Source: Rikenellaceae bacterium
Lineage (GTDB): Bacteria > Bacteroidota > Bacteroidia > Bacteroidales > Rikenellaceae
Direction of reading: 5' to 3'
DNA: 64,000 bases
NCBI GenBank assembly: GCA_031548435.1
Contig: JAVBRA010000007.1
Coordinates: forward strand, 67,955 to 131,954
Below, piece by piece: positions 931 to 14,951 of the stretch (the stretch's first letter is position 1; each line of letters starts with the position of its first letter). Position numbers and translations under genes: made by a program. The notes beneath the pieces were generated by a model. That model worked only from the letters and a program-made list of their open reading frames with translations. It searched no databases and had not been told where the DNA came from.

Positions 931-1005
931 CGGGGTGTAGCGCAGTCCGGTTAGCGCACCTGCTTTGGGAGCAGGGGGTCGTGGGTTCGAATCCCGCTAC
1001 CCCGA
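931..1005 (+). tRNA. tRNA-Pro (anticodon TGG)
   Basis: 75-nt cloverleaf read by eye. Acceptor CGGGGTG pairs with TACCCCG (one G-U). Anticodon stem CCTGC/GCAGG has loop TTTGGGA. T-loop is GGTTCGAATCC and the discriminator is A. Confidence 0.9.
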
Positions 1006-1006
1006 C
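961..1006 (+). repeat. attL: 46-bp direct repeat (3' half of tRNA-Pro, from the anticodon loop to the end)
   Basis: Identical 46-mer 'tgctttgggagcagggggtcgtgggttcgaatcccgctaccccgac' recurs at 16908-16953. Flanking bases differ on both sides. Confidence 0.9.
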
Positions 1007-1290: not shown

Positions 1291-1674
1291 TCAATTTTTC
1301 TTCCATGTAAACAGCATATCGAGAAGTCGGATTTTCCCGGTGTGTATTTTTCCGCGAATATGCTTCTCCAATGAGGATTCCGTGATCGACAATTCCATCA
1401 ACCCAGCCTCTTTGTCGAACGATACGACACCGAAGTCCACATCCTTATCCTCGATACGAACGACAATCTTCTCTCCCGGATGCAACTCAAAACCACTGGT
1501 CACCCCAACAGTCCCCGCATACGACACCGAATCCATGCGGATAAGGTCTATTTCGACAACCCGGTCTGTTTTTATCGAATGCATCATAAAATAGATGCCG
1601 GCAAGCAATACCACCAGCATAATCGATATGCCGTATTTTACGACAAATGTTGTTTTATGTACCCTCAGTCCCAT
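1291..1674 (-). CDS. Small membrane-anchored protein, possibly a short HlyD-like accessory of the ABC exporter
   Basis: 127 aa with an N-terminal hydrophobic helix 'ISIMLVVLLAGIYFMM'. Its start shares base 1674 with the stop of the upstream ABC gene (coupled). Beta-rich segment 'GTVGVTSGFELHPGEKIVVRIED'. Confidence 0.4.
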   Translation of the reverse strand: MGLRVHKTTFVVKYGISIMLVVLLAGIYFMMHSIKTDRVVEIDLIRMDSVSYAGTVGVTSGFELHPGEKIVVRIEDKDVDFGVVSFDKEAGLMELSITESSLEKHIRGKIHTGKIRLLDMLFTWKKN

Positions 1675-3869
1675 CAGTCGGCCAGTTCCAGTTGGTTCTT
1701 AATCAGATTCAAATACACGCCGTTTTTCTGAATAAGCTCGGAGTGGATACCTGTTTCCTGTATCATTCCGTCTTTAAGCACGACGATCTGATCGGCGCTT
1801 TTCACCGTACTCAGTCGATGGGCGATCACCACAACGGTTTTTCCGACGAAGAAATCGTCGAGGTTCTCGACAATGATGCGTTCGTTTTCGGCATCGAGCG
1901 AGCTGGTCGCCTCATCGAAAAACAGATAATCGGGGTTTTTATACACCGCGCGGGCGATCATGATACGTTGGCGCTCTCCGCCGCTGATACCCGTGCCGGC
2001 CGATCCGATCTTTGTGTCGAGCCTCAGAGGCTTCTCGTCGATGAACTTGCTCAAGTTTGCAATCCGGATAGCGTCGGCCAACCGCTTTTCGTCGGCTTCT
2101 TTATCGCCCAAAATAATATTACGCCGAATGGTGTCGGCAAAGATATAGTTGTCTTGCATCACGACGCCACATACGCCACGCCATTGGTCGGCCGAATATT
2201 CGTCGAACAAGGTGTCGCCTATGAAGATTTTTCCTTGAGTCAAGGGGTAGAATTTCAACAACAGTTTTACAAGAGTGGTTTTGCCACTGCCGCTCTCACC
2301 CACGATAGCCGTTGTTTTGCCGCGTGGAATGACCAGATCGATGTCTTTTAAAACCAATTTGGAATAAGGCCCTTCGTAACGAAAACTAAGGCCGTCCAGA
2401 ACAATCTTATCGCAATGCCTTGGAATGGGTTTGTAAGACTCCCGGTTGTCCTCATCTTCCTGAATATACACCTCGCCTGAACGTTCCATGCTGATTTTCG
2501 AATCCTGAACACTCTGCACAAACCCGATCAGTTGCGACAGGGGCGAACTCATCTGCCCGATGATGTACGATATGCTCATCATCATTCCCAGGGTGATGCT
2601 TCCTTTCACTACGGCAATGGCGATCAGGAGCGTGACGATGATATCCCTCGATCGGTTGATGAGGGTATAGCCGGCAGATTGCACCTGTCCCAGTTTCATC
2701 GACCTGATGCGGATCTCGTAAAGCCGCTGCTGGATATCTTCCCATTCGTTGCGTTTGTATTCCTGAAAATTGTTGAGCTTGATCTCCGACATTCCGCTGA
2801 TCATTTCCAATTTGGCCGTTTGATTCTCAGACCCTATGCGGAACAGTTTATAATCGATCACCTTTCTTTTCTTCAGAAACGCGACCAGCCACACAATGCT
2901 GACGCCCGAGAAGATGAGGTAAAGGAGAAGAATCCGCAAGTCGTACAAGGCGATGATTACAAAATAAACAATGAACGACACGAACGAGAAAAGAGTGGCA
3001 AGCGTCTCCGAAGTGGCGAACGACTCCAGCCGGTAGTGGTCGGAGATGCGGTTGTTGAAATCGCCGGCCGATTTGGTCTCGAAGAACTTGATCGGCAGCC
3101 GCATCACCTTGTAGAGGAAGTCGGAAACCAGGCTAATATTGATGCCCGTCCCCATATAAAGCACCACCCAATTGCGGATGATGCCTATGACGTAGCTACC
3201 GACGAAAAGGGCCAACTGGGCCAGCATGATCGTTACGATCATGTTCAGATTCCGGTCGCCGATCCCCCGGTCGATAAGCGCCTGGGTGAGAAAGGGTGTG
3301 ATCAGCGACACCACAAGTCCCGCCACCATCGCCAGCGACAACTGGAACAATTCGTTTTTATAGGGTCTCAGATAGTTCAGCAGGAACTTCTTGATGTTAT
3401 GCTCGTCCTTGGGCGGTTCCAATTCGAAGAACTGCTCTGTAGGCTCGCAAGCAATCGCAACGCCTTTCTCGCCGCTCAGCCATCCGGCGGCAAAATCATC
3501 TTCGCCGAACCGGTTCTTTCCATAGGCCGGGTCGGCGATATAATAGCGGGATTTACCCCGCGAATTGGTTTGTATCTTATAAAGAACGACGAAGTGATTC
3601 TGATCCCAGTGGATGATGGCCGGCAGCGGGCATTTGTTTTTGAGTTCGTCGAGCGACATTTTGAATGTCCTGGCATTCACACCAATAACCCCAAGACCCT
3701 CAGTAATGCCCGCCACCGACACCCCCTCGCGGCTCAGATATGAAAGATTGCGCAGGTAGATCAACGGATAGGATTTGCCATGGTAATGCGCCACCATGCG
3801 CACGCACGCCGGGCCGCAATCCATCGAATCGAACTGCCGGAATACCTTTAGTCTCCTTTTCTTATCCAT
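1674..3869 (-). CDS. Peptidase C39 domain-containing ABC transporter (double-glycine leader processing and export)
   Basis: 731 aa. The N-terminal papain-like motifs are 'FDSMDCGPACVRM' (Cys) and 'WDQNHFVVL' (His). Six-TM core. Walker A 'GESGSGKTTL', signature 'ISGGERQRIMIARA', Walker B 'LFFDEATSSLD'. Confidence 0.9.
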   Translation of the reverse strand: MDKKRRLKVFRQFDSMDCGPACVRMVAHYHGKSYPLIYLRNLSYLSREGVSVAGITEGLGVIGVNARTFKMSLDELKNKCPLPAIIHWDQNHFVVLYKIQTNSRGKSRYYIADPAYGKNRFGEDDFAAGWLSGEKGVAIACEPTEQFFELEPPKDEHNIKKFLLNYLRPYKNELFQLSLAMVAGLVVSLITPFLTQALIDRGIGDRNLNMIVTIMLAQLALFVGSYVIGIIRNWVVLYMGTGINISLVSDFLYKVMRLPIKFFETKSAGDFNNRISDHYRLESFATSETLATLFSFVSFIVYFVIIALYDLRILLLYLIFSGVSIVWLVAFLKKRKVIDYKLFRIGSENQTAKLEMISGMSEIKLNNFQEYKRNEWEDIQQRLYEIRIRSMKLGQVQSAGYTLINRSRDIIVTLLIAIAVVKGSITLGMMMSISYIIGQMSSPLSQLIGFVQSVQDSKISMERSGEVYIQEDEDNRESYKPIPRHCDKIVLDGLSFRYEGPYSKLVLKDIDLVIPRGKTTAIVGESGSGKTTLVKLLLKFYPLTQGKIFIGDTLFDEYSADQWRGVCGVVMQDNYIFADTIRRNIILGDKEADEKRLADAIRIANLSKFIDEKPLRLDTKIGSAGTGISGGERQRIMIARAVYKNPDYLFFDEATSSLDAENERIIVENLDDFFVGKTVVVIAHRLSTVKSADQIVVLKDGMIQETGIHSELIQKNGVYLNLIKNQLELAD

Positions 3870-5176
3870 TTATTTTTTTCTGCATCGGCTTTGTTGGTCA
3901 TAATGGAAACCCGATCGACCATCGCCTCGTATTTATCTTCTTCTGTCATTCCCAGAGGACATACATTTTCCTCGAAAGCTTCCAACTGGTGTTGGGTGCA
4001 TCCTCCTTTGCACAATGGAAGAATTTTGCATTTCAAACAACTGTCGTTTATGAATTTGCATTCCATTCGATCGTCATACCGTTCATTAAACGAAATTGTT
4101 CCGTCGGTATTTAAAACACCCTCCCGTATTTCCTTTACGAAATCACGGGCAGTACATTTGAATACGTTTCCATCATAATTAATTATGTGGCCGTTGGGCG
4201 TATCTGCATAACAAACAGAATCGGAGAATTCGTTGATCAGCGACATATTCTTTATTCCGCATTCCGCAACACGCTCCCCCATTTTCCCGACCAATTTCTT
4301 CATTCCTTCCGAGTCTTCTGCCTGCCATATTTTTTTGAACATGAAAGATAAATTATCCTTCCATTTCTCGTCGACATCCGAGAATTCATCGATCAAATCC
4401 TCGAACCCCTCTGCCGTATCTTCCGAATAATTGCATCGCACTAATATAGTCATTCCTTTCGACAGTGCGTATTTTATGTTTTCAATGGAGATGTCATAGG
4501 CAGATTTATCGTTCCCGGGCAACCGTTTTATCTTATTATGCTTCTCCCTGTTTCCGTCGAAAGGGACCTGAAAAAAGACCTTCTTTCCCAAAGTTGCCAG
4601 CCGGTCGATCTTTTTCTTGTCCAACAATGTAGCGTTGGTGGTGAACATGATCGGCAAATTACACCCGGTTTGATCGCATACTTTAACCGCATATTCAATA
4701 ATAGGCAGGATAGAAGTATCAAATCTCATGAGCGGTTCTCCTCCGAAGAAAGACAACTGTAAGGTCTTATACTCGCTTCCTTTTTGCTCGATCAGCAATT
4801 CAATCGACTTTCGGACTTCCTCCGTCATGATGCTGTCACTAACATGGGACTCGTAACAATACCAGCATTTGAGATTGCAATCCATTGTCGGGTTGATAAC
4901 CAGATTATAAAAATTTTTGGAATTATTTGCCATCTGGATGGAATCCATAACCCCCTGTTGTTCTTCTCCTATTGAACCCACTACAAATTTCTTCCCAACG
5001 AGATAGGCATAAAATTCCGGATGAATGTTCTGAAGGTCGTCCAGATGATCGATATGTTCGTCGACCAATTGCCTGAGTTCTGGAACAATGGCCATGATTT
5101 CCGCCGTTCTGCAGTTGAAAATAACGTGCCGCCCGTCGAGGTTGTCTATCGCAAAGTTATAATGACTCCATTTCAT
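3848..5176 (-). CDS. Radical SAM / SPASM-type peptide-modifying enzyme
   Basis: 442 aa. 'MDCNLKCWYCYE' is the CX3CX2C cluster motif. A 'FFGGEPL' segment follows. C-terminal Cys-rich block 'CKFINDSCLKCKILPLCKGGCTQH' plus upstream 'CYAD...CTARD' is consistent with auxiliary clusters. There is a ~95-aa N-terminal extension. Confidence 0.85.
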   Translation of the reverse strand: MKWSHYNFAIDNLDGRHVIFNCRTAEIMAIVPELRQLVDEHIDHLDDLQNIHPEFYAYLVGKKFVVGSIGEEQQGVMDSIQMANNSKNFYNLVINPTMDCNLKCWYCYESHVSDSIMTEEVRKSIELLIEQKGSEYKTLQLSFFGGEPLMRFDTSILPIIEYAVKVCDQTGCNLPIMFTTNATLLDKKKIDRLATLGKKVFFQVPFDGNREKHNKIKRLPGNDKSAYDISIENIKYALSKGMTILVRCNYSEDTAEGFEDLIDEFSDVDEKWKDNLSFMFKKIWQAEDSEGMKKLVGKMGERVAECGIKNMSLINEFSDSVCYADTPNGHIINYDGNVFKCTARDFVKEIREGVLNTDGTISFNERYDDRMECKFINDSCLKCKILPLCKGGCTQHQLEAFEENVCPLGMTEEDKYEAMVDRVSIMTNKADAEKNKWIRKGD

Positions 5177-5271
5177 AAAATTGTGGGATTAGTTGTTTCC
5201 GAGAATGAGGCACTCTGTTTTAATAGAGATCCGACAGAGTGCCTCATGATTTGCGTCACATTGTTAATTTA

Positions 5272-5568
5272 CTACTCAGGTTCGGATGTTCCAGTGGGCG
5301 TAGGAGTCGGCGTGGGAGCGGCAGTAGTTTCGCCACAATGGGTTGTGCACTGACTTTTTTTGCACTTCGTGCCTCCATTGAGATTAACGGGACAGTTGGT
5401 ATTACAAGTGACAAGGCAAATACCGTAATTGGCGTTTTCCGCCTCTGCCGCAGCCATTAGAGGTTCGAACGATGAGACCTCTCCAAAACCACCTTTTAAG
5501 AGATGTTCTTCGTTTTTTGTCAAAGGAGTCAGGGCCACCTCCAGATCCATTAATTTCTTTTGTTCCAT
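5272..5568 (-). CDS. Precursor peptide A (double-glycine leader; 6-Cys core; Thr/Pro-rich tail)
   Basis: 98 aa. The leader 'MEQKKLMDLEVALTPLTKNEEHLLKGG' fits the LxxxExLxxGG type. Core Cys spacing is C-x3-C-x3-C-x9-C-x4-C-x3-C. The tail is 'ETTAAPTPTPTPTGTSEPE'. A paralogous leader is at 6544-6810. Confidence 0.8.
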   Translation of the reverse strand: MEQKKLMDLEVALTPLTKNEEHLLKGGFGEVSSFEPLMAAAEAENANYGICLVTCNTNCPVNLNGGTKCKKSQCTTHCGETTAAPTPTPTPTGTSEPE

Positions 5569-5667
5569 AGCATTAGAATTAGCTTTTCTCTACTCATTTC
5601 AGGGCTTTTCGAGATACTCCCATAATTTCTGCAACCGGTTTGTTTCTTCATTCGGATCGGAACTTTA

Positions 5668-6544
5668 GAGGTTGTTTTAAAATTTAGTTAGGTAATCGCT
5701 TGATCATCAATTTAATCATCGCGAGGTATATCATGTTTTCTTCGTATTTTGTTTCGAACTCATATTCCCGGCTCAATCTTCGGTACGACTCCCACCAGGC
5801 AAATGTCCGTTCCACCACCCACCGCTTGGGCAAGGGTTTGAATTTATTGGATTTATCCTTGCGAAGCGTAATCTTCAGCGTGCACTTTAACTCCTTCTTT
5901 ACAACGTCCTTTAACTCACCGCTATAGCCACCGTCTGCATAAATCTTTTTCATCCGCCCGAACTCCGGTTTCAACTGTCCCATCACATCTATCGCCGCCT
6001 TGCTGTCGTGCCGATTGGCCGGATGAACTTTCACCGCCAACATCAACCCTTGGGCATCAGTGATGATATGCCGTTTGCGGCCTTTCACACGTTTACCACC
6101 GTCGATACCGCGCTCCTTACCGCGATATGTGCCATGAACACTTTGAGAGTCAATAATTCCCACACTCGGCGAAGTCTCCTTTCCTGCGCGGCGGCGAAGC
6201 AAGCCTCGCAAATAATCGTGTACCTTTTTGAAAGTCCCGGCAAGGCTCCATTTGCGGAAGTAGTAGTAAACAGATTGCCATGCCGGAAAATCTCCGGGCA
6301 ACTGATGCCACTGACAGCCGGTCTTTAACAGGTAGAAGATCGCATCAAATATCTCTTTCAATGAACGTCGGCGCTTGCGTTTGTCGCCAATTATGCCTAA
6401 TATTGTCGCGTATTGGTTATCGGTCAGATTGCTCGGATATTGTTTTTTCATTCTTTATGTGGTTGAGAACTATAAAGATACGAAAAATATCCGACAATCT
6501 ACTGATAATCAATTATTTATATCTGTAAATTTCAAAACAACCTC
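5668..6544 (-). mobile_element. IS5-family insertion sequence (~0.88 kb)
   Basis: 19-bp terminal inverted repeats match 18/19: 5668-5686 gaggttgttttaaaattta versus the reverse complement of 6526-6544. Flanking TA dinucleotides (5666-5667 and 6545-6546) are the likely target duplication. There is a single DDE transposase ORF. Confidence 0.8.
5684..6451 (-). CDS. IS5/IS4-superfamily DDE transposase
   Basis: 255 aa. N-terminal 'LTDNQYATILGII...IFDAIFYLLKTGCQWHQLP' is a DUF4096-like HTH typical of IS5-family transposases. C-terminal 'YADGGYSG' and 'VVERTFAWWESYRRL' follow. The stop codon lies inside the left inverted repeat. Confidence 0.85.
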   Translation of the reverse strand: MKKQYPSNLTDNQYATILGIIGDKRKRRRSLKEIFDAIFYLLKTGCQWHQLPGDFPAWQSVYYYFRKWSLAGTFKKVHDYLRGLLRRRAGKETSPSVGIIDSQSVHGTYRGKERGIDGGKRVKGRKRHIITDAQGLMLAVKVHPANRHDSKAAIDVMGQLKPEFGRMKKIYADGGYSGELKDVVKKELKCTLKITLRKDKSNKFKPLPKRWVVERTFAWWESYRRLSREYEFETKYEENMIYLAMIKLMIKRLPN

Positions 6545-6810
6545 TAAGATTTCTCTGTCGACGAGTTGCTACTCCCAGATCCGTTGGATTTACATCTTCT
6601 TTTTTTCTTTTTCGTATCTTCCGTTCCGGCTCCATTGCGACAAGTGCGGAAGCAAATCAGCGCATTGGTGTTGGTCTTAGTCTCTCTTTTTGCCGTTGCA
6701 GCGGGTTGAAATGAAGCGACTTCACCAAACCCTCCCTTCAACAGACGTTCTTCGTTTTTTGCCATAGGCATCAGGTTCACCTCCAGATCCATTAATTTTT
6801 TTGGTTTCAT
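6544..6810 (-). CDS. Precursor peptide B (double-glycine leader; 3-Cys basic core; Ser-rich tail)
   Basis: 88 aa. The leader 'MKPKKLMDLEVNLMPMAKNEERLLKGGFGEVASFQP' is near-identical to precursor A through about residue 36. The core is 'ALICFRTCRNGAGTEDTKKKKRRC' and the tail is 'KSNGSGSSNSSTEKS'. Confidence 0.75.
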   Translation of the reverse strand: MKPKKLMDLEVNLMPMAKNEERLLKGGFGEVASFQPAATAKRETKTNTNALICFRTCRNGAGTEDTKKKKRRCKSNGSGSSNSSTEKS

Positions 6811-6853
6811 AATCTAAAGTTTAATTGTTTAGTTACTTGTACAACTCCGATAT

Positions 6854-9250
6854 TTATTCGAGCGGCGCTCCAAAGGATTTCCGTTCAGCGTCGACTTTCT
6901 TGGCTTTCTTATCCCCTCCGCTTTTAAAACTGTAACTTAGGGAAAAATTCAGCGAGGTAACCGGGGACACGGTTCGTGTCTGATAGTTGTAGTAATCGTT
7001 GTGAATGCCCGAGGTATCCGAATTCTTGAAAAGAATGCTACTGATCCCAACACCTGCCAGCAGTCTGTTCTTGAATAGAAATTTATAGCCGCTGATATCG
7101 ATACCGTAGCTGGGCGTTCTTTTGTAATATCCTTCTTCCTGCCCGGTAGCCCCTCTGAACGACAGGCTGCCGCCCCAATTCCCCTTGAACGAGAACGAGT
7201 TGTTGATAGACAGTCGTGCCACATTGCCGGTATAATCGACATCCGGATTCGAGGTCTTCATAATCGCGAACGCTGCCTGCGGATTCATGCTCCACCATTT
7301 GCATATCTTCACGGGATAGCCGGTGCCGAACATATGGGCAACCTGTCTGCCTGCATTTACCGGCATGACGTAAGTGACGAGCGGATCGGAGGCATCGGTG
7401 AAGGTTTTAGGAAAGACCACATCGTCTATCCGATAATAGTTATAATAGACCTGCCATTTGTTCCGAAGCACGTAGCTCACCTGCAACAGATGCCGGCTGT
7501 CCGGTTTCAGCAGCGGATTTCCGACAGAATACGAGTGGTCGGACAAGGGAATGACGACCGGGTTAAAGAGATTATAGGTCGGAAACGACAGGGCCCGTTT
7601 GTAGGTGACATTCACCAATGTACCCTTCTGGCGATTGAAAAAACAGGCGATCCCCACATCGGGATAGATCCCGAAGTAATTCCGGTTTACGACCGTATCT
7701 TCCTTGAAGGAAGTGAACCGGGTGGTGTTCCATGTGGCATTCAGCCCCGCATTGAACGAGAAACGCCCGATTTCCGAAATGTATTCGGCATAGCAGTTAA
7801 AGTCTTGTCCGTTGTTGGTGAAATCGTCGCTCTGGCCGGAATCGGCCACCCAATTCCCGGATGTGTAGTTCTGATAAACCAGCTTGCCGGTGGTGTTGCC
7901 CGATGCGAAATAGCCGCCGAAGTCCAGTTCGGAATTCCCAACCATCACTTCGAAATGTACCTCGGCATTAAACAGGTCGTCCGGGTTCATATCGCGCATA
8001 TCCCGGGTTTGCGACAGGTCGGAATCGCCGGAGACCAATGAGGTATAGTCGTAGGTGTAACACCCGTTGTTTCGTACCGGTGTATTGGTGTAATCCACCT
8101 GAATGTTCATATTGGAGCCTTCCTCGTCCAGATCCAACAGGTAGTTCAGCACGCCGTAATACTCGTCGGTGCGGTTGTTCACCTGCGATTTATACGACGT
8201 CCACTCGAGCGGCGACCCCGAATAGTCGGATGTTTCGGAGAGGGAGCGCCCGGACAAATCGCTGCGGGTGCCGTAGTAACTGAAATTCCCGCCCAGGGAT
8301 TGTTTCTCATCTATATCGTAGACAAGGCTCAGGATATTCGAGAACGTATTGGTGCCGGTGGTGTTGGCCACATCGGTGTTCATCCTGACCTGGGAGCCGG
8401 GATAATCCCCGTCGGTGACGCGCTCGGTGAAATTGTCGGAATAGGAATAGCCCGCCTGATCGTAGACGCTCCATTTCTTGTACCTGTAATTGATCGTTCC
8501 GGTGATGCTTTCGCTCTTAAAACCGTTTTCGTCGACCGAGAGGTTGTTGTTCACATTGCCGTAATACCCGTTCTCCAGATTCTTCTTCAGTCTGATTTTT
8601 ATGACCCCACCGACCACCTGGGCGCCGTATGCGCTGCCGGCGACAGGAGTGACCTCGATGCTTTCGATGTCCTCGGCCCGGATACCGCCCAGTTCGTCGT
8701 TCCGTTTCAGCTTGCGCCCGTTGAGGTACACCCGGTCGACGTTGAGGCCATTGACCTTCAGCCCCTCGTGCATGGTAACTCCCGGAAGGAAACCCAATAC
8801 CCCATAAGCCGACTTGCCTTTGGCAATGGGATTGCCCTGCATACTGACAGTATACTTGTTCGACATCCGCCGGATGAATTCGCCCTTTACGACCACCTCG
8901 TCGATTTTAACGGCTTTGGGGCTCAGACGGATGGTATCCAGGGTGATGTTATGATCCAGCCGGAGCGTCTGCGAGTATTCCTCGTAAGCCATGTGCGTAA
9001 CCCGGAAAACATAGTCGCCGGTTTCGATGCCGCTGATAACAAAACCGCCATCCTGACCGGAGAACACCCCGCCTACCGTCGGCCCGCCCGAGGCGCGTTC
9101 GACGGTCGCGGAACACAGGCCAAGCACCTCTCCGGTTGCAGACGTCACAACCCCCGACAGGGAATGTTTCTGGGTATTCTGCCCCCATGCTGAAGTTGAA
9201 ATACAGAAACACACACACCAGACAAAAATCTTTCGTATAATTTTCCCCAT
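6854..9250 (-). CDS. TonB-dependent-receptor-type outer membrane beta-barrel with an N-terminal carboxypeptidase-regulatory-like domain
   Basis: 798 aa. Signal peptide 'VWCVCFCISTSAWGQ'. 'LSGVVTSATGEVLGLCSATV...GGFVISGIETGDYVFRVTHMAY' is CarbopepD_reg-like. The plug-like segment is 'DRVYLNGRKL...IESIEVTPVAGSAYGAQVVGGVIKIRLKK'. A long Tyr/Asn/Gly-rich barrel follows. Confidence 0.75.
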   Translation of the reverse strand: MGKIIRKIFVWCVCFCISTSAWGQNTQKHSLSGVVTSATGEVLGLCSATVERASGGPTVGGVFSGQDGGFVISGIETGDYVFRVTHMAYEEYSQTLRLDHNITLDTIRLSPKAVKIDEVVVKGEFIRRMSNKYTVSMQGNPIAKGKSAYGVLGFLPGVTMHEGLKVNGLNVDRVYLNGRKLKRNDELGGIRAEDIESIEVTPVAGSAYGAQVVGGVIKIRLKKNLENGYYGNVNNNLSVDENGFKSESITGTINYRYKKWSVYDQAGYSYSDNFTERVTDGDYPGSQVRMNTDVANTTGTNTFSNILSLVYDIDEKQSLGGNFSYYGTRSDLSGRSLSETSDYSGSPLEWTSYKSQVNNRTDEYYGVLNYLLDLDEEGSNMNIQVDYTNTPVRNNGCYTYDYTSLVSGDSDLSQTRDMRDMNPDDLFNAEVHFEVMVGNSELDFGGYFASGNTTGKLVYQNYTSGNWVADSGQSDDFTNNGQDFNCYAEYISEIGRFSFNAGLNATWNTTRFTSFKEDTVVNRNYFGIYPDVGIACFFNRQKGTLVNVTYKRALSFPTYNLFNPVVIPLSDHSYSVGNPLLKPDSRHLLQVSYVLRNKWQVYYNYYRIDDVVFPKTFTDASDPLVTYVMPVNAGRQVAHMFGTGYPVKICKWWSMNPQAAFAIMKTSNPDVDYTGNVARLSINNSFSFKGNWGGSLSFRGATGQEEGYYKRTPSYGIDISGYKFLFKNRLLAGVGISSILFKNSDTSGIHNDYYNYQTRTVSPVTSLNFSLSYSFKSGGDKKAKKVDAERKSFGAPLE

Positions 9251-9255
9251 ACCCG

Positions 9256-10203
9256 TTATTTGGCGTTTATTTTATCGGCCACAGCGTCATTGATTCTGCA
9301 AAAATTGTCGTATCCGGCCGTAAGTATATCCGAATAATAGCCCCGGAGATTTTCGACTTCCTCTTGCCGTTCCTTCATCATCTCCGCGGCCCGGACATAA
9401 TTGATGTAATTGATTCCTTTCATTGCCCGAATGACTTTCCTCCTCAACACTTCCGGCAATACGGTTTCGGCAATGAACATTTTGTTGTAGAAAATCTCCA
9501 GGCTATCCATCACGTAAGGAAATTTATTCCGGAATAGATGACCTATCACCACATCGGTCAAGAGGCGGCATCGCCCTCCTTCCATCCATGCCTTCAGGCT
9601 GATGTATGCTTCTTCACATCCATACAGCCTCAGACCCTCGAATCCTCGCAAATAATTCCAATACTCCTTGGTGGCGGCATAGCATGCCCCCAGTACACAG
9701 GGAACATCGACGAGGTTCGTATCCGAATAGATGTTATAGGTCACCCAAGCCACATTGACTACTGCCCGTTCTTTCGGCTCCAGAGCCTTAAAGTAGGCCG
9801 CATAAGGAGGTTCGCATCCGGTTTCCGCTTTTTTATCAAAACTCCACGATTTGCAGCGGCAACAATAGATCGCTCTTGGATCTTCTTTTATCGCGCTCAC
9901 GATTTTAAGCCACCAGTCGTCATGATAAAACCGCATATGCCCGTCTATAACCAGAAAATAAGGAGTCTGACAAGCATTGATTCCGGCCTGTTTGGCCGGG
10001 CCGCTTCCCAGGCGATCCGAATGTTCGACATAAAGCGTCCCGTATCGTTCAGCCACCGACTTATAATCAAATCCGTCATCCGAGGCATCGTTTACAAGAA
10101 CAATATCCACAGCGTCTCCGGCCGTTCTCTTAATCTCTCTTATGGTGATTTCAACTTCGTTCCCTTCGTTGAGAAAAGGGATGACTACTGTCAGTTCATT
10201 CAT
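9256..10203 (-). CDS. Glycosyltransferase, polypeptide-GalNAc-transferase-like (GT27/GT2 fold), paralog 1
   Basis: Start moved to 'MNELTVVIPFLNEG', matching its paralog; its ATG overlaps the upstream stop as ATGA. Motifs are 'IVLVNDASDDG', 'FLVIDGHMRF' (DxH) and 'LYGCEEAYISLKAWMEGGRCRLLTDVVIGHLFRNKFPY', which resembles the Gal/GalNAc-T motif WGGEN.E.SFR.W.CGG...GH.FR...PY. Confidence 0.7.
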   Translation of the reverse strand: MNELTVVIPFLNEGNEVEITIREIKRTAGDAVDIVLVNDASDDGFDYKSVAERYGTLYVEHSDRLGSGPAKQAGINACQTPYFLVIDGHMRFYHDDWWLKIVSAIKEDPRAIYCCRCKSWSFDKKAETGCEPPYAAYFKALEPKERAVVNVAWVTYNIYSDTNLVDVPCVLGACYAATKEYWNYLRGFEGLRLYGCEEAYISLKAWMEGGRCRLLTDVVIGHLFRNKFPYVMDSLEIFYNKMFIAETVLPEVLRRKVIRAMKGINYINYVRAAEMMKERQEEVENLRGYYSDILTAGYDNFCRINDAVADKINAK

Positions 10204-11156
10204 ACCAACTGAGACTTCTTTGTTAATTCGGCTATAAACCATTCGTTTATTTTCGAAAACCGATCGTAACCGCCCTTAAACACAGAAGCGTAATATTCTC
10301 TGAACTCATCGACCTTACCCTTAACAGGCTCCATAAGTTCCCTTGCCTGAGCATAATTCACATAATCGACCGCCTTTATGGCCTTTATCACTGGTCGGGC
10401 AATGGACTCGGGTAAAATGGTTTCAGCAATAAACAACTTGTTGTAGAATAACTCCAAATAGTTAACTGCATATGGAAACTTCTTTCGGAAAAGATGCCCT
10501 ATAGTCACGTTATTGACGAGGCGGCATCGCCCGCCTTCCATCCATGCCTTCAGGCTGATATAGGCCTCATCGCAACCATACAGCATCAAGCCATCGACGC
10601 CTCTTAAATAGTTCCAATACTCTTTCGAGGCAGCGTAACTCGCACCCAACACGCACGGAATATCAACAATTTCTGCTCGTGAATGGATATCGCGATTGAT
10701 CCACGTGACATCCAGTATACCTCTCTTCTCGGAATCGAGCAACTTGAGACAGGCGCCATAACCCATGGTTCCTTTTTCTTTCTTCTCTTCAAAATCCCAC
10801 ATCCGGCAGCGAGTACAGTAGATCGCTCTCGGATCGTCTTTGATCGCTTTCACTATCTCGATCCACCAATTATCGTTGTAAAATCGCATATGCCCATCGA
10901 TGATGAGAAGGTAGGGCGTTCGACATAAACGAACACCTATCTCTCTTGAAGATGCGCAACCTTGCCGCATTTGGTTCTCAACATAGCGCGCATTATATTT
11001 CACTGCAACACCACTGTAGTCGAATCCGTCCGTTGAAGCATCGTTGATCATGATCACATCCACCGCCCCACCGGCCGTTCGCCGAATCTCCTTCAGCGTT
11101 GTTTCAACCTCGCCTCCTTCGTTGAGAAAAGAGATGATGACGGTGAGTTCATTCAT
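10200..11156 (-). CDS. Glycosyltransferase, polypeptide-GalNAc-transferase-like, paralog 2
   Basis: 318 aa. 'MNELTVIISFLNEGGEVE', 'VIMINDASTDG', 'LLIIDGHMRF', 'LYGCDEAYISLKAWMEGGRCRLVNNVTIGHLFRKKFPY'. It aligns by eye along its full length with 9256-10203. Confidence 0.7.
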   Translation of the reverse strand: MNELTVIISFLNEGGEVETTLKEIRRTAGGAVDVIMINDASTDGFDYSGVAVKYNARYVENQMRQGCASSREIGVRLCRTPYLLIIDGHMRFYNDNWWIEIVKAIKDDPRAIYCTRCRMWDFEEKKEKGTMGYGACLKLLDSEKRGILDVTWINRDIHSRAEIVDIPCVLGASYAASKEYWNYLRGVDGLMLYGCDEAYISLKAWMEGGRCRLVNNVTIGHLFRKKFPYAVNYLELFYNKLFIAETILPESIARPVIKAIKAVDYVNYAQARELMEPVKGKVDEFREYYASVFKGGYDRFSKINEWFIAELTKKSQLV

Positions 11157-11994
11157 AGCCGAAGTTCAATAATTTGCGTTCGATCAATCCGTCAAATAGA
11201 GAATACGCTTCATTGTAATAGGTTTCTTCACCGGCCTCCCCGTTCAAGTAGGCCTCCCGGAGCCGCAGAAAATTCTTCAACCGGAACCCTCCCGCCCCCA
11301 ATTTGATTATGGACAGGTAATAATCGATTAATTCGTTTTTCACATGTCGTGTTCCTTCCTGCAATTCATCATACCTGGTAGCGGACAGTTGTGCGGGAGA
11401 ACGGCGGTACTTCAACAACACCTCTTGGATGTTTGCGAAACACCCGACTTTGATAATATCACACCACATTTTATAATCATCGGCGAATGAATACCCGTCC
11501 CGGTAGCGGATATCATGGGCATCCAAGATGGATTTTCGTATTATCGTCGACGGATGCGCCATTTGACAGGAGTGAACCATGTTCGATATAATATCTTCAT
11601 GATTCGCACTTGTTTTTATTACTCCCGTTTCGCTTCCAAATAATTCGATCCAACTGCCGCAAACAGCGACATTCGGATTGGACTCCATAAAATCAACCTG
11701 TTTTTGAATGCGCCCGGGAAGCATAACGTCATCGTGATCCATCCTCACAATATACTTTCCCTGGGACAGGTCGATTCCTTTGTTAAGGGTCTCTAGACGG
11801 TTATGATCAAATTGAAATAATTTGATCCGATGGTCATCATAAGATTGTATGATTTCAATCGTGCTGTCGGATGAACCGTCATCCACGATTATCAGCTCAA
11901 AACCCTTGAATGCCTGCAATAATATACTGTCGACAACTTCAATAATGAATGCTTCCGAATTATAGGTAGCCATCAAAACAGAAACATCGCACAT
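11149..11994 (-). CDS. Family 2 glycosyltransferase
   Basis: 281 aa. 'VSVLMATYNSEAFIIEVVDSIL.Q', 'ELIIVDDGSSDST' and 'VRMDHDDV' are the classic GT2 N-terminal Rossmann and DxD pattern. Confidence 0.85.
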   Translation of the reverse strand: MCDVSVLMATYNSEAFIIEVVDSILLQAFKGFELIIVDDGSSDSTIEIIQSYDDHRIKLFQFDHNRLETLNKGIDLSQGKYIVRMDHDDVMLPGRIQKQVDFMESNPNVAVCGSWIELFGSETGVIKTSANHEDIISNMVHSCQMAHPSTIIRKSILDAHDIRYRDGYSFADDYKMWCDIIKVGCFANIQEVLLKYRRSPAQLSATRYDELQEGTRHVKNELIDYYLSIIKLGAGGFRLKNFLRLREAYLNGEAGEETYYNEAYSLFDGLIERKLLNFGYE

Positions 11995-12140: not shown

Positions 12141-12170
12141 TTTTAAAACAGCCACCTCAAAGGGTGGCTG
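12141..12170 (-). terminator. Rho-independent terminator separating the island maintenance module from the glycosyltransferase/RiPP operon
   Basis: On the minus strand, stem cagccacc / ggtggctg with loop ctttga is followed by TTTT. It lies just downstream of the 12195 stop. Confidence 0.6.
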
Positions 12171-12194
12171 TTTAGCATTCATCGCATGGAAGAA

Positions 12195-12554
12195 TTACGC
12201 CGGGTCGTCGGAAAGGTATTCTGCCATCTGACTCGGGGTAAGACCGTGGAGGGAGTCTGGGGCATCGGCAGGCAAATGAGATAGCACCTCTGTCATTTGT
12301 GCATGGGTGAGCCGCTCTTTAAAGATGCTGTTTTCTTTGCGCTCCAAATAATCAGCCCATTCTTCATCGGTAAAATAGGGACGTTTCTCTTCGCGCGTCA
12401 GCGGCGGGCCTATGAATGAGATAACGTCAGTAACACGAGGCGGTTCGTCCGACCCGATGATGCTCTCGGACAGGATAATCACAACGCGCTCCTGTGCGCC
12501 CGGTTTGTTCATCATCGACATCATGCGATCGATCTTATCCTTCTTCGTTTCCAT
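12195..12554 (-). CDS. Hypothetical protein (island 1)
   Basis: 119-aa ORF, acidic, with no motif I recognise. It overlaps the upstream ORF by 20 nt, consistent with an operon. Confidence 0.5.
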   Translation of the reverse strand: METKKDKIDRMMSMMNKPGAQERVVIILSESIIGSDEPPRVTDVISFIGPPLTREEKRPYFTDEEWADYLERKENSIFKERLTHAQMTEVLSHLPADAPDSLHGLTPSQMAEYLSDDPA

Positions 12555-12882
12555 TCAGTTGATAAATTTGTTTGATTTTTTCTTCGAGTGCGTCGACCAC
12601 TTTGTCCGGCGCGTTATGCAGAAACCTCTCAAGTGCGGCAAATTCCGCTTCGATCTGCTCCTGTATCGATATGGGCGACATTTTAGGTGTCGTATAGGCC
12701 ATCAGCCGCTCGACGATCGCCCAGCGGTCTTTCGGGTCGAGGGCTTTCAAATCCGCCTCCAGTTGCGTCCGGTTGCCGTCGATGAGTTGCCGTATCCAAT
12801 CTCGCATAGACGCTGTCACCTTGTTCGGTTTTCCTTTCGGGCGCCCTTTCGGATTGCCTGTCTGCCCTTTACGCTGCGCCAT
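12535..12882 (-). CDS. Hypothetical protein with a basic N-terminus 'GNPKGRPKGKPNK' (DUF5681-like, tentative)
   Basis: 115-aa ORF. The G-N-P-x-G-R-P-K-G N-terminal motif is common in small proteins of Bacteroidales mobile elements and phages (from memory). Confidence 0.5.
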   Translation of the reverse strand: MAQRKGQTGNPKGRPKGKPNKVTASMRDWIRQLIDGNRTQLEADLKALDPKDRWAIVERLMAYTTPKMSPISIQEQIEAEFAALERFLHNAPDKVVDALEEKIKQIYQLNGNEEG

Positions 12883-12898
12883 AATATGTAACTCAATG

Positions 12899-13819: not shown

Positions 13820-14141
13820 TATCCTTATCGGGGGTTTTAGGGGTTTTGGAAACCCCGTTGGAGGTTTTTCGTGGTCTGCCTCCAAGTTTACCATAATCAG
13901 CCCCCTTCATGCCGTTTTTACGATTTTTTACGCATGTGGCCTCATAACGCTCATTCATCTCAACCACAAAAGGTTCGATGAACTTCCACGCTACCAGTAC
14001 TGAGCCATGAAGATTTTGCGGGTAAATGCCCTCGAATTGGTATTCCATTAAAACGGTAAGCAACTGGCCTCTCTCCTCAACAGATAATGCTTTGATAGCC
14101 CCCGTATGCTGGCGGTGTATCATCAACGTGTCCTTTCTCAT
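13812..14141 (-). CDS. Hypothetical protein, paralogous to 14138-14377
   Basis: 109 aa. 'LLTVLMEYQFEGIYPQNL' parallels 'LVTALSDYHFHGKQPRDL' in the neighbouring ORF. Basic tail 'GGRPRKTSNG'. Confidence 0.5.
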   Translation of the reverse strand: MRKDTLMIHRQHTGAIKALSVEERGQLLTVLMEYQFEGIYPQNLHGSVLVAWKFIEPFVVEMNERYEATCVKNRKNGMKGADYGKLGGRPRKTSNGVSKTPKTPDKDND

Positions 14142-14377
14142 AACTTGAAGTCTTTGGAGGTGACTATTTTTAGGACACTGAATATGCCCTCCAGCCGGGC
14201 TGGAAGGTCTCGGGGTTGTTTCCCGTGAAAGTGATAATCAGACAGGGCCGTTACAAGCAGCCCGGACTCTTTATCCTCAAGATCCAAGAAGAGATCCTTG
14301 AATTGTTCCGGGATGACGAAGTATTCTTCTTGTTTATTCATAAACACCTCCTTTTTGATCGGAATCAAACAGTTCAT
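14138..14377 (-). CDS. Hypothetical protein, paralogous to 13812-14141
   Basis: 79-aa ORF (alternative start Met13 at 14341). Its stop overlaps the downstream start. Confidence 0.45.
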   Translation of the reverse strand: MNCLIPIKKEVFMNKQEEYFVIPEQFKDLFLDLEDKESGLLVTALSDYHFHGKQPRDLPARLEGIFSVLKIVTSKDFKL

Positions 14378-14386
14378 GTCGGCCTA

Positions 14387-14918: not shown

Positions 14919-14940
14919 AATGAGAACCAAATGAGAACCA
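14919..14940. repeat. Tandem 11-bp repeat aatgagaacca x2
   Basis: Exact tandem duplication in the 205-bp intergenic gap between the excisionase-like gene and ORF 14952-15503. Confidence 0.6.
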
Positions 14941-14951
14941 TGACACCCATC

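Follow-up and report, generated by a model that had tools for sequence, protein, structure and literature searches.

A probable RiPP-like biosynthetic operon combining a radical SAM enzyme with GalNAc-transferase-like glycosyltransferases on a tRNA-Pro-integrated island of a Rikenellaceae bacterium

Genomic context and organization of the operon

The window, i.e. the whole analysed stretch of 64,000 nucleotides, contains an island of 15.9 kb (~16 kb) at a tRNA-Pro gene, which is bordered by a perfect 46-nt direct repeat and harbors the operon at 1291-11994 (Table 1). The GC content is 0.476 within the island and 0.551 in the remainder of the window. The direct repeat and the tyrosine integrase of the island itself bear out the preliminary description of this DNA, according to which the element integrates at a tRNA. 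All ten ORFs reported there were recovered at their positions on the minus strand, and its domain calls were all reproduced, with HMM and structure searches in agreement. The junctions between the operon genes were likewise found to be exact, namely a shared base at 1674, a 22-nt overlap at 3848-3869, a 5-nt gap at 9251-9255 and an 8-nt overlap at 11149-11156. The ATGA overlap described at 10200-10203 exists only if the internal ATG at 10203 is taken as the GTb start; the longest ORF begins at 10242. Upstream of the operon, a terminator had been placed at 12141-12170; a hairpin is present, but at about 12145-12173, and was not reported by a consensus terminator scan because of its short T-run. 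It is likely the terminator of the upstream island gene and is the 5′ limit of the operon.

Table 1. Features of the island in the window.
Feature	Position	Strand	Evidence and remarks
tRNA-Pro(tgg)	931..1006	+	ARAGORN; 3′ 46 nt (961-1006) = attL of the island
127-aa accessory protein	1291..1674	-	single N-terminal TM helix (residues 7-36)
Peptidase-containing ABC exporter (PCAT)	1674..3869	-	C39 Cys-protease, six-TM domain, ATPase (Pfam)
Radical SAM/SPASM peptide maturase with N-terminal RRE-like domain	3848..5176	-	PF04055
Precursor B, 98 aa	5272..5568	-	GG leader (1-27), 6-Cys core, C-terminal TTAAPTPTPTPTGTSEPE tail; leader HMM E 3e-12
IS5-family insertion sequence	5666..6546	-	transposase 5684-6451, NF033580 214 bits (cut-off 110)
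Precursor A, 88 aa	6544..6810	-	GG leader, 3-Cys core, Ser-rich tail SNGSGSSNSSTEKS; leader HMM E 1.7e-7
TonB-dependent-transporter-like outer-membrane protein, 798 aa	6854..9250	-	Pfam OMP_b-brl_3 1.5e-54, CarbopepD_reg_2
GTb, soluble pp-GalNAc-T-like glycosyltransferase	9256..10242 (likely start ATG 10203)	-	Glycos_transf_2; DGH at residue 87
GTa, soluble pp-GalNAc-T-like glycosyltransferase	10200..11156	-	Glycos_transf_2; GT27-like catalytic domain without lectin domain
Classic GT2, 281 aa, EpsE/TuaG-like	11149..11994	-	PF00535 2.4e-30; NF053739 3.7e-29
Hairpin AAACAGCCACC-ctttga-GGTGGCTGTTTT	12145..12173 (about)	-	read from sequence
Island backbone	12195..16729	-	DUF5681-like protein, BT4734_N/PriCT_2 primase, two DUF6291 proteins, HTH_17 (excisionase-like) protein, tyrosine integrase (15500-16729) (Pfam)
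attR, second copy of the tRNA-Pro 3′ end (46 nt)	16908..16953	+	100% identical direct repeat

The IS5-family element is present in one copy in the window, and its terminal inverted repeats, (TA)GAGGTTGTTTT[G/A]AAATTTA, match at 20 of 21 positions. Its insertion point separates the precursor genes and coincides exactly with the stop codon of precursor A, which was changed from TAA to TAG, so that the ORF of precursor A is intact. By its insertion the operon is split into the glycosyltransferase genes, the barrel and precursor A on one side and precursor B, the radical SAM enzyme and the exporter on the other; the insertion may be polar on the downstream genes, and the split counts against the pathway proposed below.

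Precursor peptides and radical SAM enzyme

Both window precursors consist of a canonical double-glycine leader (L-12, T/A-11, E-8, L-4, GG) followed by an invariant Phe, a core that contains Cys and a tail rich in Ser, Thr and Pro, in which T/S/P reach up to 10 of 12 residues in precursor B. The leaders, formerly called near-identical, share 27 of 36 residues (75%), and the cores, formerly called unrelated, both open with I-C-x-x-T-C-x-N. A leader HMM applied to the loci around homologs of the radical SAM enzyme yielded 74 precursor ORFs over all fetched loci, duplicates included. Conservation of the small GG-leader ORFs beside the radical SAM gene, a test set by the preliminary description, was observed in related loci, with precursors detected at 53 of 83. 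Phe directly follows GG in 66 of 68 distinct cores, and Asn occupies position -3 of the core Cys in 64% of the 444 Cys having that position, a 5.3-fold enrichment. For such NxxC motifs a Cys-to-Asn C-beta thioether synthase, NxxcB, has been demonstrated experimentally (PMC9389541); it is likened to the enzymes of the present family by its substrate motif. The window precursors have NxxC at one of six Cys (B) and none of three (A), which is a further point against the proposed pathway, since with such poor NxxC substrates the cross-link chemistry deduced from the family may not apply to them.

The radical SAM enzyme contains the motifs CNLKCWYC (residue 100) and CX2CX5CX3C (residue 380), and seven Cys in a SPASM pattern (322, 341, 380, 383, 389, 393, 406) are invariant over 21 homologs. 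In its AF2 model (pLDDT 86.8) a beta3-alpha3 arrangement is predicted with high confidence at residues 7-61, in line with the earlier suggestion that the N-terminal extension is a peptide-recognition element. The top Foldseek matches of the model are CteB, SuiB and TigE, and the closest structures or models (CteB, PapB, CefB, TIGR04463) are thioether-forming maturases of Cys-rich peptides. Identity to any relative is at most 45%, and the enzyme scores below the cut-offs for PapB and all other curated models, which speaks against the assignment; in NCBIfam, no model reached its cut-off on the radical SAM enzymes and none matched the window precursors.

Membership in the TIGR04148/TIGR04149 pairing (GG_samocin_CFB/GG_sam_targ_CFB), which had been put forward in the preliminary description and likewise unites a radical SAM maturase with GG-leader precursors in Bacteroidota, was rejected. 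The enzyme reaches 61 bits where 300 are required, aligned over the core domain only, and TIGR04149 gave no match in the two window precursors or 38 relatives; the family is a different one.

It appears unlikely that the window copy is inactive or decaying cargo, with its genes uncoupled by IS5 and its precursors diverged from the NxxC motif of their family. The position of IS5 between the two precursor genes, the NxxC frequency of 1/9 Cys as compared to 64% in the family and the finding of the element in one sample only would agree with decay, whereas all nine ORFs are intact with their catalytic motifs kept, and IS5, co-oriented with the operon, left precursor A untruncated. Moreover, the alignment of precursor A with the precursor of the nearest relative (locus L136) revealed the same low-Cys core, N-x-N-x-L-x-C...C-R-(G)-N, and on this comparison the low-Cys core seems to characterise a subfamily and not to result from decay.

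Exporter, accessory protein and outer-membrane barrel

The exporter is matched by Peptidase_C39 (1.2e-30), ABC_membrane and ABC_tran in Pfam, the catalytic Cys (DCG) and His (HFVV) of the C39 domain are present, and the bacteriocin-export models of NCBIfam match below cut-off. Of 16 matches to the 127-aa protein, homologs of 124-156 aa, 15 are encoded immediately downstream of an exporter gene (BLASTP 2e-10 to locus L007 and 1e-17 to L136); in NCBIfam, MAG1140_fam was matched weakly over the full length (E 0.0024). Judged by this gene order, the protein and the peptidase-ABC exporter are conserved partners. In the Rikenellaceae relatives L002 and L005 an exporter gene is absent nearby, which does not favor the proposed pathway. 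The colicin V system CvaAB-TolC similarly relies on a C39-ABC exporter needing an outer-membrane partner in a diderm, but in the operon described here neither an HlyD-type membrane fusion protein nor TolC is encoded; instead, the 127-aa single-TM partner and a dedicated TonB-dependent-transporter (TBDT)-like barrel are found. The combination of a PCAT and an outer-membrane protein without a membrane fusion protein has been noted, unexplained, in other Bacteroidales RiPP clusters (PMC10352776).

The barrel protein comprises a signal peptide, a CarboxypepD_reg domain, a putative TonB box (IDEVVVKG), a plug-like domain and the barrel itself. A CarboxypepD_reg-like domain is also located at the N-terminus of Oar of Myxococcus. 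With its AF2 model (pLDDT 77), PhuR, OprC, Cir and FepA were retrieved by Foldseek at E values of about 1e-18 over 720-780 columns, so that the former call of a TonB-dependent-type barrel is right by fold and borderline by the Pfam Plug model (22.3 bits, cut-off 23.9).

Export of the peptide over the outer membrane by this barrel is considered somewhat probable. Export is argued against by the usual role of TBDTs, which is import, and by the fold, plug and TonB-box-like sequence retained here, all of them features of classical importers. The structural matches also include Cir and FhuA, importers of microcins, and RiPP metallophore clusters, e.g. that of methanobactin, possess a TBDT for re-uptake. 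The mature glycopeptide might thus leave by another route and be taken back up, or be taken up by kin, and would then be a signal, public good or metal carrier rather than a toxin. This import scenario is possible but doubtful: the barrel gene adjoins the exporter and precursor genes, a conserved association found at 65 of 83 loci, the outer-membrane step would otherwise be missing from an operon lacking genes for a membrane fusion protein or TolC, and metal binding would be unlikely if the Cys are consumed in thioethers. In addition, Oar, required for PopC secretion, sets a precedent for a TBDT working in secretion (PMC6434023), as proposed here for the barrel.

Glycosyltransferases

In a phmmer search of the PDB, GalNAc-T4, T10 and T2 were the best matches of GTa (E 2.7e-10), with the DxH, Gal/GalNAc-T and GH(L/V)F motifs aligned, and the profile of the family matched GalNAc-T2 over the whole catalytic domain (E 4.5e-25), which confirms the earlier GalNAc-transferase-like call. 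GTb is a paralog of GTa with 57.5% identity; the DxH and His metal ligands are conserved in both, and no TM segment was detected in either. The homology thus extends to the animal and apicomplexan pp-GalNAc-Ts (CAZy GT27), which start mucin-type O-glycosylation. Unlike these, GTa and GTb have no ricin-type lectin domain, membrane anchor or stem, and would act in the cytoplasm on a peptide of ~90 aa before export. The Thr/Pro-rich tracts, their predicted acceptors, resemble preferred GalNAc-T acceptor sequences. At the related locus L007 an epimerase, a UDP-galactopyranose mutase and a Core-2/I-branching (GT14) enzyme are added, the last of these being a further likeness to the GT27 systems.

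A GalNAc-T-like enzyme was found at about 40 of the 83 radical SAM loci (~half), and at many loci, in Prevotellaceae and Bacteroidaceae, it forms a single protein of ~800 aa together with the GT2, a fusion matched by both queries. Its presence tracks the T/S/P tract of the precursors (Mann-Whitney p 6e-5; per-locus Fisher p 0.003-0.004), a link that is statistical and confounded by phylogeny. At a threshold of 8 in 12 residues, 14 of 36 glycosyltransferase-positive loci fall below it, which weighs against the proposed glycosylation. The tract is positioned after the penultimate Cys in 28/28 cases. Two of three apparent exceptions were accounted for: L026 has a Glyco_transf_7C glycosyltransferase, and L033 is a 4.3-kb contig with weak glycosyltransferase matches only. 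The ORFs of the third, L032, match those of L026 in size and order, the sole features compared. In the reverse search, starting from the glycosyltransferase, a radical SAM enzyme, exporter or precursor was encountered in 15 of 18 long loci.

The glycosyltransferases might also merely share the operon and serve in the synthesis of a polysaccharide of the cell surface or a glycan linked to lipid, given that GT2-family enzymes are mostly polysaccharide enzymes, that EpsE and TuaG are the nearest matches of the 281-aa GT2 and that about half of the radical SAM loci work without a GalNAc-T-like enzyme. This is judged quite improbable in view of the tract correlation and the outcome of the reverse search; furthermore, protein O-GalNAc transferases match the GalNAc-T-like domain 11 orders of magnitude above other solved glycosyltransferases, the enzyme is soluble, and the operon lacks flippase, polymerase or lipid-carrier genes.

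Distribution in Bacteroidota

Homologs of the radical SAM enzyme were found at at least 580 loci in Bacteroidota, with GG-leader Cys-rich precursors bearing NxxC motifs, a TBDT-like barrel (either subtype, 65/83) and the exporter (53/83) as neighbors. All components are found together again in L136/L137; L136, the closest relative with 45% radical SAM identity, has the identical set in a chromosomal context. This recurrence, together with the tracking of the T/S/P tract and the reverse search, indicates that the link between glycosyltransferases, barrel and peptides is not an accident of the island. The combination, which the preliminary description took together with carriage on a tRNA-integrating element, is widespread and mostly chromosomal rather than special to a mobile element. 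Its designation as undescribed is consistent with the searches, as no description of a peptide family with radical SAM enzyme, glycosyltransferase and barrel was found in the searchable full-text literature and NCBIfam gave no match above cut-off for the radical SAM enzymes or the window precursors.

Proposed pathway and comparison with known systems

The operon is with fair probability a RiPP-like biosynthetic operon with a five-step pathway. This reading builds on the observed gene content, domain and fold assignments, gene-set conservation and island structure, from which we infer every chemical step, the transport direction of the barrel and the biological role. After translation of the two precursors, the cytoplasmic radical SAM/SPASM enzyme would bind the leader via its N-terminal recognition domain and cross-link the core Cys; thioether bonds to a carbon of a side chain are the most likely product, with the Asn of the repeated NxxC motifs as the presumed target across the wider family. 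The two pp-GalNAc-T-like enzymes would then attach the first O-linked sugars to the Ser and Thr of the tail, and the GT2 would extend them. The exporter and its 127-aa partner would subsequently cut after GG and move the peptide over the inner membrane, and the barrel would carry it over the outer membrane. The peptides are thus probably both cross-linked by a radical SAM enzyme and glycosylated by relatives of the mucin enzymes, and most likely serve in antagonism or signalling between Bacteroidales. No recognisable immunity gene is present, a point against this explanation.

The ranthipeptide-type radical SAM/SPASM RiPPs (NxxcB/NxxC of streptococci, PapB/freyrasin, CteB) share a maturase with N-terminal recognition domain beside a Cys-containing precursor, and CteB is the best structural match. 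They are found in Firmicutes and carry NxxC once, whereas in the Bacteroidota family the motif is repeated many times, the window precursors being largely devoid of it; a glycosyltransferase, a TBDT-like barrel and a Thr/Pro tail are added at the loci studied here. Glycocins (sublancin, glycocin F, thurandacin), of which the ten identified to date are described as originating from Bacillota (PMC9576775), share the GG-type leader, the C39-ABC exporter and the modification of the precursor by a GT-A glycosyltransferase in the cytoplasm, as is predicted here. Chains of the SunS/ThuS type were absent among the PDB matches of the pp-GalNAc-T-like enzymes, and the glycocin acceptor is the loop of a disulfide-stapled helical hairpin, in contrast to the mucin-like tail predicted as acceptor here; the radical SAM enzyme and the outer-membrane barrel are additions to the glycocin scheme.

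Operon structure and related loci

All named genes of the operon, together with the transposase inserted among them, were recovered on the minus strand by ORF listing, with the overlaps and gaps between neighbours that the preliminary description had reported. One of these depends on the choice of start codon: the ATGA overlap at 10200-10203 between the two GalNAc-transferase-like glycosyltransferase genes (GTa and GTb) holds with the internal ATG at 10203 as the start codon of GTb and is lost with a start at 10242. The terminator-like hairpin upstream of the operon proved real; it was absent from the output of a consensus terminator scan because its T-run is short.

Coordinates of features in the window and in fetched related loci (L-numbers)
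Feature	Position	Strand	Remark
Accessory protein	1291-1674	minus	ORF list
Peptidase-ABC exporter	1674-3869	minus	ORF list
Radical SAM enzyme	3848-5176	minus	ORF list
Precursor B	5272-5568	minus	ORF list
IS5-family transposase	5684-6451	minus	ORF list
Precursor A	6544-6810	minus	ORF list
Barrel protein	6854-9250	minus	ORF list
GTb	9256-10242	minus	ORF list
GTa	10200-11156	minus	ORF list
GT2	11149-11994	minus	ORF list
Hairpin 5' of operon	~12145-12173		AAACAGCCACC-ctttga-GGTGGCTGTTTT; read from sequence
3' end of tRNA-Pro	961-1006		46 nt
Duplicate of tRNA-Pro 3' end	16908-16953		perfect copy
Hairpin inside island	1018-1047		bidirectional
Native tRNA-Pro terminator	~16965-16995		past attR
DUF5128 low-GC patch	33355-34869		six-bladed beta-propeller protein
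Second island	50977-56557		GC 0.39-0.45
Direct repeat, first copy	50977-51129		153 nt
Direct repeat, second copy	56378-56530		153 nt
TerB-like protein	52244-52741		second island
530-aa ORF	53371-54963		second island
Bacteroidota-type integrase	55115-56359		second island
tRNA-Thr(ggt)	56485-56557		overlapped by direct repeat
Precursor with hydrophobic tail	L007:6496-6795
Precursor with hydrophobic tail	L010:11389-11706
Precursor with hydrophobic tail	L071:11321-11662
Double GT, 815 aa	L007:4029-6476		weak LANC_like match
LANC_like protein	L026:15204-16379		Chitinophaga
Accessory protein, extended	L054:15803-16273		N-terminal extension

Homologs of the radical SAM enzyme (rSAM) numbered 1,374 at E <= 1e-10, with a best identity of 45%. 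When one genome per species was scanned, at least 580 loci were obtained, which among the matches listed belonged to Bacteroidota throughout and included Rikenellaceae, Prevotellaceae, Bacteroidaceae, Tannerellaceae, Chitinophaga, Flavobacterium, Chryseobacterium and Sphingobacterium. The neighbourhoods of 83 non-redundant loci were mapped by phmmer searches and an iterated HMM of the leader. Of these loci, 65 had a barrel of one kind or the other, 53 the exporter and about 40 a GalNAc-transferase-like GT; a precursor was detected in 53/83, which bears out the conservation of small GG-leader ORFs beside rSAM homologs. All of these counts are lower bounds, with many contigs ending early.

Three recurrent gene layouts were distinguished. 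Type I (~38 loci, Prevotellaceae and Bacteroidaceae) comprises, in this order, a GT2/GalNAc-transferase-like fusion of ~800 aa, the rSAM, one or more precursors, a barrel protein of ~970 aa, the exporter and the accessory protein. Type II, from environmental Bacteroidota and some Bacteroidales, has the exporter and/or an OMP_b-brl_3 protein, one or more precursors, the rSAM and the exporter, without a GalNAc-transferase-like GT. Type III, formed by Rikenellaceae-like loci and the window, has separate GT genes, an OMP_b-brl_3 protein, a precursor and the rSAM. The nearest relative, L136/L137 (rSAM identity 45%), lies on a chromosome by dnaG and carries exactly the component set of the window: a GT2, a GalNAc-transferase-like GT, a precursor of 75 aa, the rSAM, an OMP_b-brl_3 protein, the exporter and an accessory protein of 133 aa. 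The gene combination is therefore not peculiar to a mobile element, as had been supposed; the system is a conserved one that has the island among its vehicles. In gut Prevotellaceae, Bacteroidaceae and Rikenellaceae the family is abundant, and its products could affect gut competition or host interaction.

Radical SAM maturase

The radical SAM call was borne out by PF04055 (8e-16) and the cluster motif CNLKCWYC at residue 100. The SPASM-type C-terminal Cys cluster was likewise recovered (C322, G336-x4-C341, C380/383/389/393 and C406), and this Cys set was invariant across 21 homologs. In the AF2 model (pLDDT 86.8 overall, ~90 for the N-terminal domain) the N-terminal extension, for which a role in peptide recognition had been proposed, was predicted to form three strands (residues 7-11, 17-21 and 26-30) and then three helices (32-41, 45-51 and 53-61). 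This predicted layout matches that of the RiPP recognition element, a winged helix of three strands and three helices (PMC10352776).

The best structural matches in a Foldseek search were CteB, SuiB and TigE, those to CteB and SuiB being full-length. By sequence, the nearest enzymes were maturases that form thioethers in Cys-rich peptides (TIGR04463, geopeptide, CefB, Clo7bot and PapB), all far under their respective cut-offs, and no NCBIfam model reached its cut-off on the rSAMs of the family. The suggested assignment to the TIGR04148/TIGR04149 pairing (GG_samocin_CFB) was dropped: the window rSAM reached 61.2 of the required 300 bits, TIGR04149 matched 0/40 family members, and the window system is thus not a member.

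Precursor peptides

The leaders follow the canonical double-glycine register, with L/M at -12, T/A at -11, E at -8, L at -4 and GG, and Phe stands directly after GG in 66/68 distinct cores. The two window precursors are less alike in their leaders and more alike in their cores than the preliminary description had it: the leaders match at 27 of 36 residues rather than being near-identical, and both cores begin with I-C-x-x-T-C-x-N. In the NCBIfam scan the window precursors were unmatched, and of the 40 precursors scanned only two members matched, weakly, models of unrelated Cys-repeat peptides.

Cores of the family are rich in Cys and Asn. Among the 444 core Cys having a residue at -3, this residue was Asn in 64%, a 5.3-fold enrichment, and a repeated NxxC unit is the core pattern of the family. 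The streptococcal rSAM NxxcB installs a thioether from Cys-S to Asn-C-beta at the NxxC motif (PMC9389541), and by analogy a thioether of this type would be the strongest clue to the chemistry of the family; the comparison with the NxxC ranthipeptides was made on the substrate motif. The window itself fits the family motif weakly, with one of six Cys in precursor B (NTNC) and none of three in precursor A. The core of precursor A, N-x-N-x-L-x-C...C-R-(G)-N, is also present in the L136 precursor, and the poor NxxC fit therefore looks like a subfamily trait. An origin of the Lys-rich core of precursor A from a frameshift in an A-run was rejected, since the other frames, read by eye, gave no Cys-rich peptide and the L136 core motif matches.

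At loci with a GT, the last Cys residues of most precursors are followed by a tract rich in Thr, Ser and Pro, for instance TPTPTPTPTGT, TTEETTEETTPEE or nine or ten Thr in a row; such a tail is present in all six Type III precursors. Type I precursors mostly end in hydrophobic residues (...GFLFGF, ...SFLF, ...MSMLF, ...GFLF). The last residue was F, L, I, W, M or V (most often F) in 37/42 cores from GT-positive loci versus 7/24 cores from other loci; the window precursors lack this hydrophobic tail. In Type I it could be a sorting or anchoring signal by which the product is kept at the surface.

Glycosyltransferases and their association with peptide tails

GTa and GTb are soluble paralogs with 57.5% identity. 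The best solved relatives of GTa (318 aa) were polypeptide GalNAc-transferases (E 2.7e-10, single-sequence PDB search), and the family profile upheld the GalNAc-transferase-like call (E 4.5e-25), with matches that span the whole catalytic domain (positions 6-234 to 6-273 of 316). This match was 11 orders of magnitude better than those to other GTs, which cover the N-terminal ~90-125 residues only. The aligned motifs include DGH (DxH) at residue 87, GHLF/GHVF and the Gal/GalNAc-T motif (YGCDE...WMEGG/WGGEN...WQCGG). Unlike true GT27 enzymes, GTa has no ricin-type lectin domain and no membrane anchor or TM segment, nor was a further Pfam domain found in it. The classic GT2 described earlier was confirmed as the third GT and resembles EpsE/TuaG. 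The system also differs from glycocins in having no SunS-type GT: PDB sequence and profile searches returned polypeptide GalNAc-transferases and generic GT2s only and no SunS/ThuS-type enzyme, which presumes a ThuS-type chain in the PDB.

The GalNAc-transferase-like GT family counts 362 representatives (50% identity, E <= 1e-30), and four lines, all of them indirect, suggest that its members act on the peptide. Firstly, the median Thr/Ser/Pro tract score was 8 of 12 residues in GT-positive loci versus 5 in the others (Mann-Whitney p 6e-5). Counted per locus, those with and without a tract numbered 21/12 in the presence of the GT versus 3/15 in its absence, or 22/14 versus 3/14 (Fisher p 0.003-0.004), for loci that are phylogenetically related and with an arbitrary tract threshold, below which 14/36 GT-positive loci fell. 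The tract lay beyond the penultimate Cys in 28/28. Secondly, two of three seeming cases of a tract without a GT were explained. The Chitinophaga locus L026 encodes a 582-aa protein with a Glyco_transf_7C domain; this Pfam name is taken from galactosyltransferases, and the domain spans the Gal/GalNAc-T motif region of polypeptide GalNAc-transferases as well. The other case, L033, is a contig of 4.3 kb with weak GT matches only. In L032, the third case, the ORFs have the sizes and order of those in L026. Thirdly, a metagenome search starting from the GT found an rSAM homolog in 11/18 loci of >=8 kb, and an rSAM, exporter or precursor in 15/18. Fourthly, GT2 and GalNAc-transferase-like domains are joined in one protein at many loci, and L007 additionally encodes an epimerase, a UDP-galactopyranose mutase (GLF) and a Core-2/I-branching enzyme (Branch).

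LanC-like sequences were observed at two loci: the L007 double GT matches LANC_like weakly in its C-terminal third (E 0.013), and L026 encodes a LANC_like protein of its own (E 1.3e-11). They recall the clusters with rSAM and LanC but no LanB that are described in PMC10352776.

Exporter and accessory protein

The call of an exporter with a C39 peptidase domain was confirmed (Peptidase_C39, 1.2e-30; catalytic Cys in DCG and His in HFVV). The protein has six TM segments and a complete ATPase, with Walker A GESGSGKTT and signature ISGGERQR read from the translation, and thus shows the features of a PCAT, namely the C39 Cys and His, the ABC motifs and a GG-leader substrate. In two Type III loci from Rikenellaceae MAGs (L002, L005) GT, barrel, precursor and rSAM are present and the precursors keep the GG leader; no peptidase-ABC exporter was found within 10 kb, and it must be encoded elsewhere or shared.

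The small membrane-anchored protein described earlier was also recovered, with 127 aa and a single N-terminal TM helix. A homolog search with this protein alone returned only itself; homologs gathered from the fetched related loci have 124-156 aa and follow immediately after the exporter gene in 15/16 cases. The version in L054 carries an N-terminal extension, presumably resembling HlyD-family N-termini. The sole database resemblance of the window protein was a weak full-length match (E 0.0024) to the Mycoplasma MAG1140 family, the NCBIfam accession of which adjoins that of a Mycoplasma peptidase-ABC model that also matches the window exporter. A function as a mini-TonB coupling the pump to the barrel was set aside, because this is the only resemblance and Mycoplasma has no outer membrane. 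From these sequence comparisons, the accessory protein may be a minimal exporter adaptor common to several phyla.

Outer-membrane barrel and direction of transport

The barrel protein (798 aa) contains OMP_b-brl_3 and CarboxypepD_reg domains; its Plug score of 22.3 bits lies just below the gathering threshold of 23.9, and its relatives have recorded Plug and TonB_dep_Rec matches. In agreement with the proposed TonB-dependent type, the AF2 model (pLDDT 77, pTM 0.69) predicts a large barrel enclosing an N-terminal plug. Foldseek matched it, across both plug and barrel, to PhuR, OprC, Cir, FepA and FhuA (E 5e-19 to 1e-16 over 700-800 columns); a PDB sequence search gave no matches, and the likeness to TonB-dependent transporters (TBDTs) comes from the fold search. 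Judged by eye, the stretch IDEVVVKG that follows the N-terminal domain is similar to a TonB box. The ~970-aa protein of Type I loci had no Pfam match and aligns to the CarboxypepD_reg/plug region of the window barrel (E 2e-8).

Given this TBDT-like build, import of the peptide by the barrel is a serious rival to export. Outward passage would fit an operon without a gene for a membrane fusion protein or TolC, which other Bacteroidales RiPP clusters likewise lack (PMC10352776), and has a precedent for a TBDT in secretion in Oar/PopC (PMC6434023). If tied to export, a dedicated TBDT-type barrel would bear on how the outer membrane is crossed without these two components (PMC10352776).

Proposed pathway and relation to known systems

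With export as the working assumption, the following pathway is proposed. The GG-leader precursors would be translated, the rSAM would cross-link the core Cys under guidance of its recognition domain, and GTa and GTb would O-glycosylate the tail in the cytoplasm, the sugars being extended by GT2. The peptide would then be cut after GG and exported via the peptidase-ABC pump and its small partner, and finally pass through the TBDT-like barrel. Translation and export of the precursors draw on strong knowledge of the respective families, cross-linking and glycosylation would follow from homology and comparative association, and passage through the barrel is the least supported step. The product may act as a toxin, a signal or a surface glycopeptide.

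In its working, the system would be a cross between ranthipeptide-type rSAM RiPPs and glycocins that uses a GT of mucin type and has an outer-membrane barrel of its own. What sets it apart as a variant among RiPP biosynthetic clusters is a eukaryote-like peptide GT, a conserved TBDT-like barrel and a large family. A full-text literature search, provisional since most subscription journals lay outside its scope, found no description of this architecture; the nearest paper was a 2023 mining study of Bacteroidales with nine rSAM clusters, all different. Should the inferred chemistry hold, these loci would represent a RiPP family joining radical-SAM cross-linking to protein-type O-glycosylation, and it would give a first function to bacterial homologs of the enzymes that initiate mucin glycosylation in animals.

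A wider reading, put forward as speculation and in our judgement rather unlikely, is that Bacteroidota, notably gut Bacteroidales, make a large unrecognised family of 'mini-mucins'. These small peptides would have a Cys/Asn-rich head stapled by thioethers and, on a Thr/Pro tail, mucin-type O-glycans added in the cytoplasm by GalNAc-transferase homologs, extended and branched at some loci via GT2 and Core-2/GT14-like enzymes, and would be exported by the peptidase-ABC pump and an outward TBDT-like barrel. In the gut they might mimic or compete with host mucin glycans, and the many versions ending in hydrophobic ...GFLF might stay on the surface.

Integrative island and IS5 element

The operon lies on a tRNA-integrating element, as had been recognised: the 3' end of tRNA-Pro is perfectly duplicated, a tyrosine integrase is located at one end, and the GC content is 0.476 versus 0.551 in the remaining window. 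Between the repeats are the operon and a small backbone. In Pfam the arm-binding domain of the tyrosine integrase proved to be of Bacteroidota type; the other backbone products are an HTH_17 protein, a pair of DUF6291 proteins, a primase (BT4734_N/PriCT_2) and a DUF5681-like protein. No relaxase or mobilisation genes were found among the island ORFs scanned by domain search. A strong hairpin with a stem of 12-13 bp followed by a T-run lies just within the island by the reconstituted tRNA-Pro, and the island therefore supplies a new terminator to the tRNA; the native terminator persists beyond the island. The window copy shows that the entire system is able to move on a 16-kb integrative island.

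This copy is split by an IS and divergent. The IS5-family element sits between the precursor genes, and its transposase scored 214 bits on NF033580 (cut-off 110). The terminal inverted repeats match at 20/21 positions; the target duplication is 2 bp only (TA), a weak criterion for assignment to IS5. Insertion took place in the stop codon of precursor A, the ORF of which is intact because TAA was swapped for TAG. Co-transcription of the operon half downstream of the element may be disturbed. The island is known from one public assembly and one sequencing run (SRR23967709), whose contigs break at the IS and are the only other public copies; no IS-free copy was found among them. The species of the window is absent from a set of 185k species representatives, and a look-up of the integrase gave no match. 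Nine of ten host housekeeping proteins looked up were found in the collection, each a singleton at 90% identity, and the host therefore represents a rare lineage. The closest relatives of the operon proteins are in Rikenellaceae and Alistipes MAGs.

Other features of the window

A low-GC patch encodes a DUF5128 protein (E 6.8e-27), which is adjoined by a small NVEALA-like protein (E 4.6e-4, under the Pfam threshold). This pairing recurs in Bacteroidales and has no known function. A second small tRNA-integrated island was also observed, whose 530-aa ORF had no match in the Pfam scan and whose two flanking direct repeats are 92% identical.
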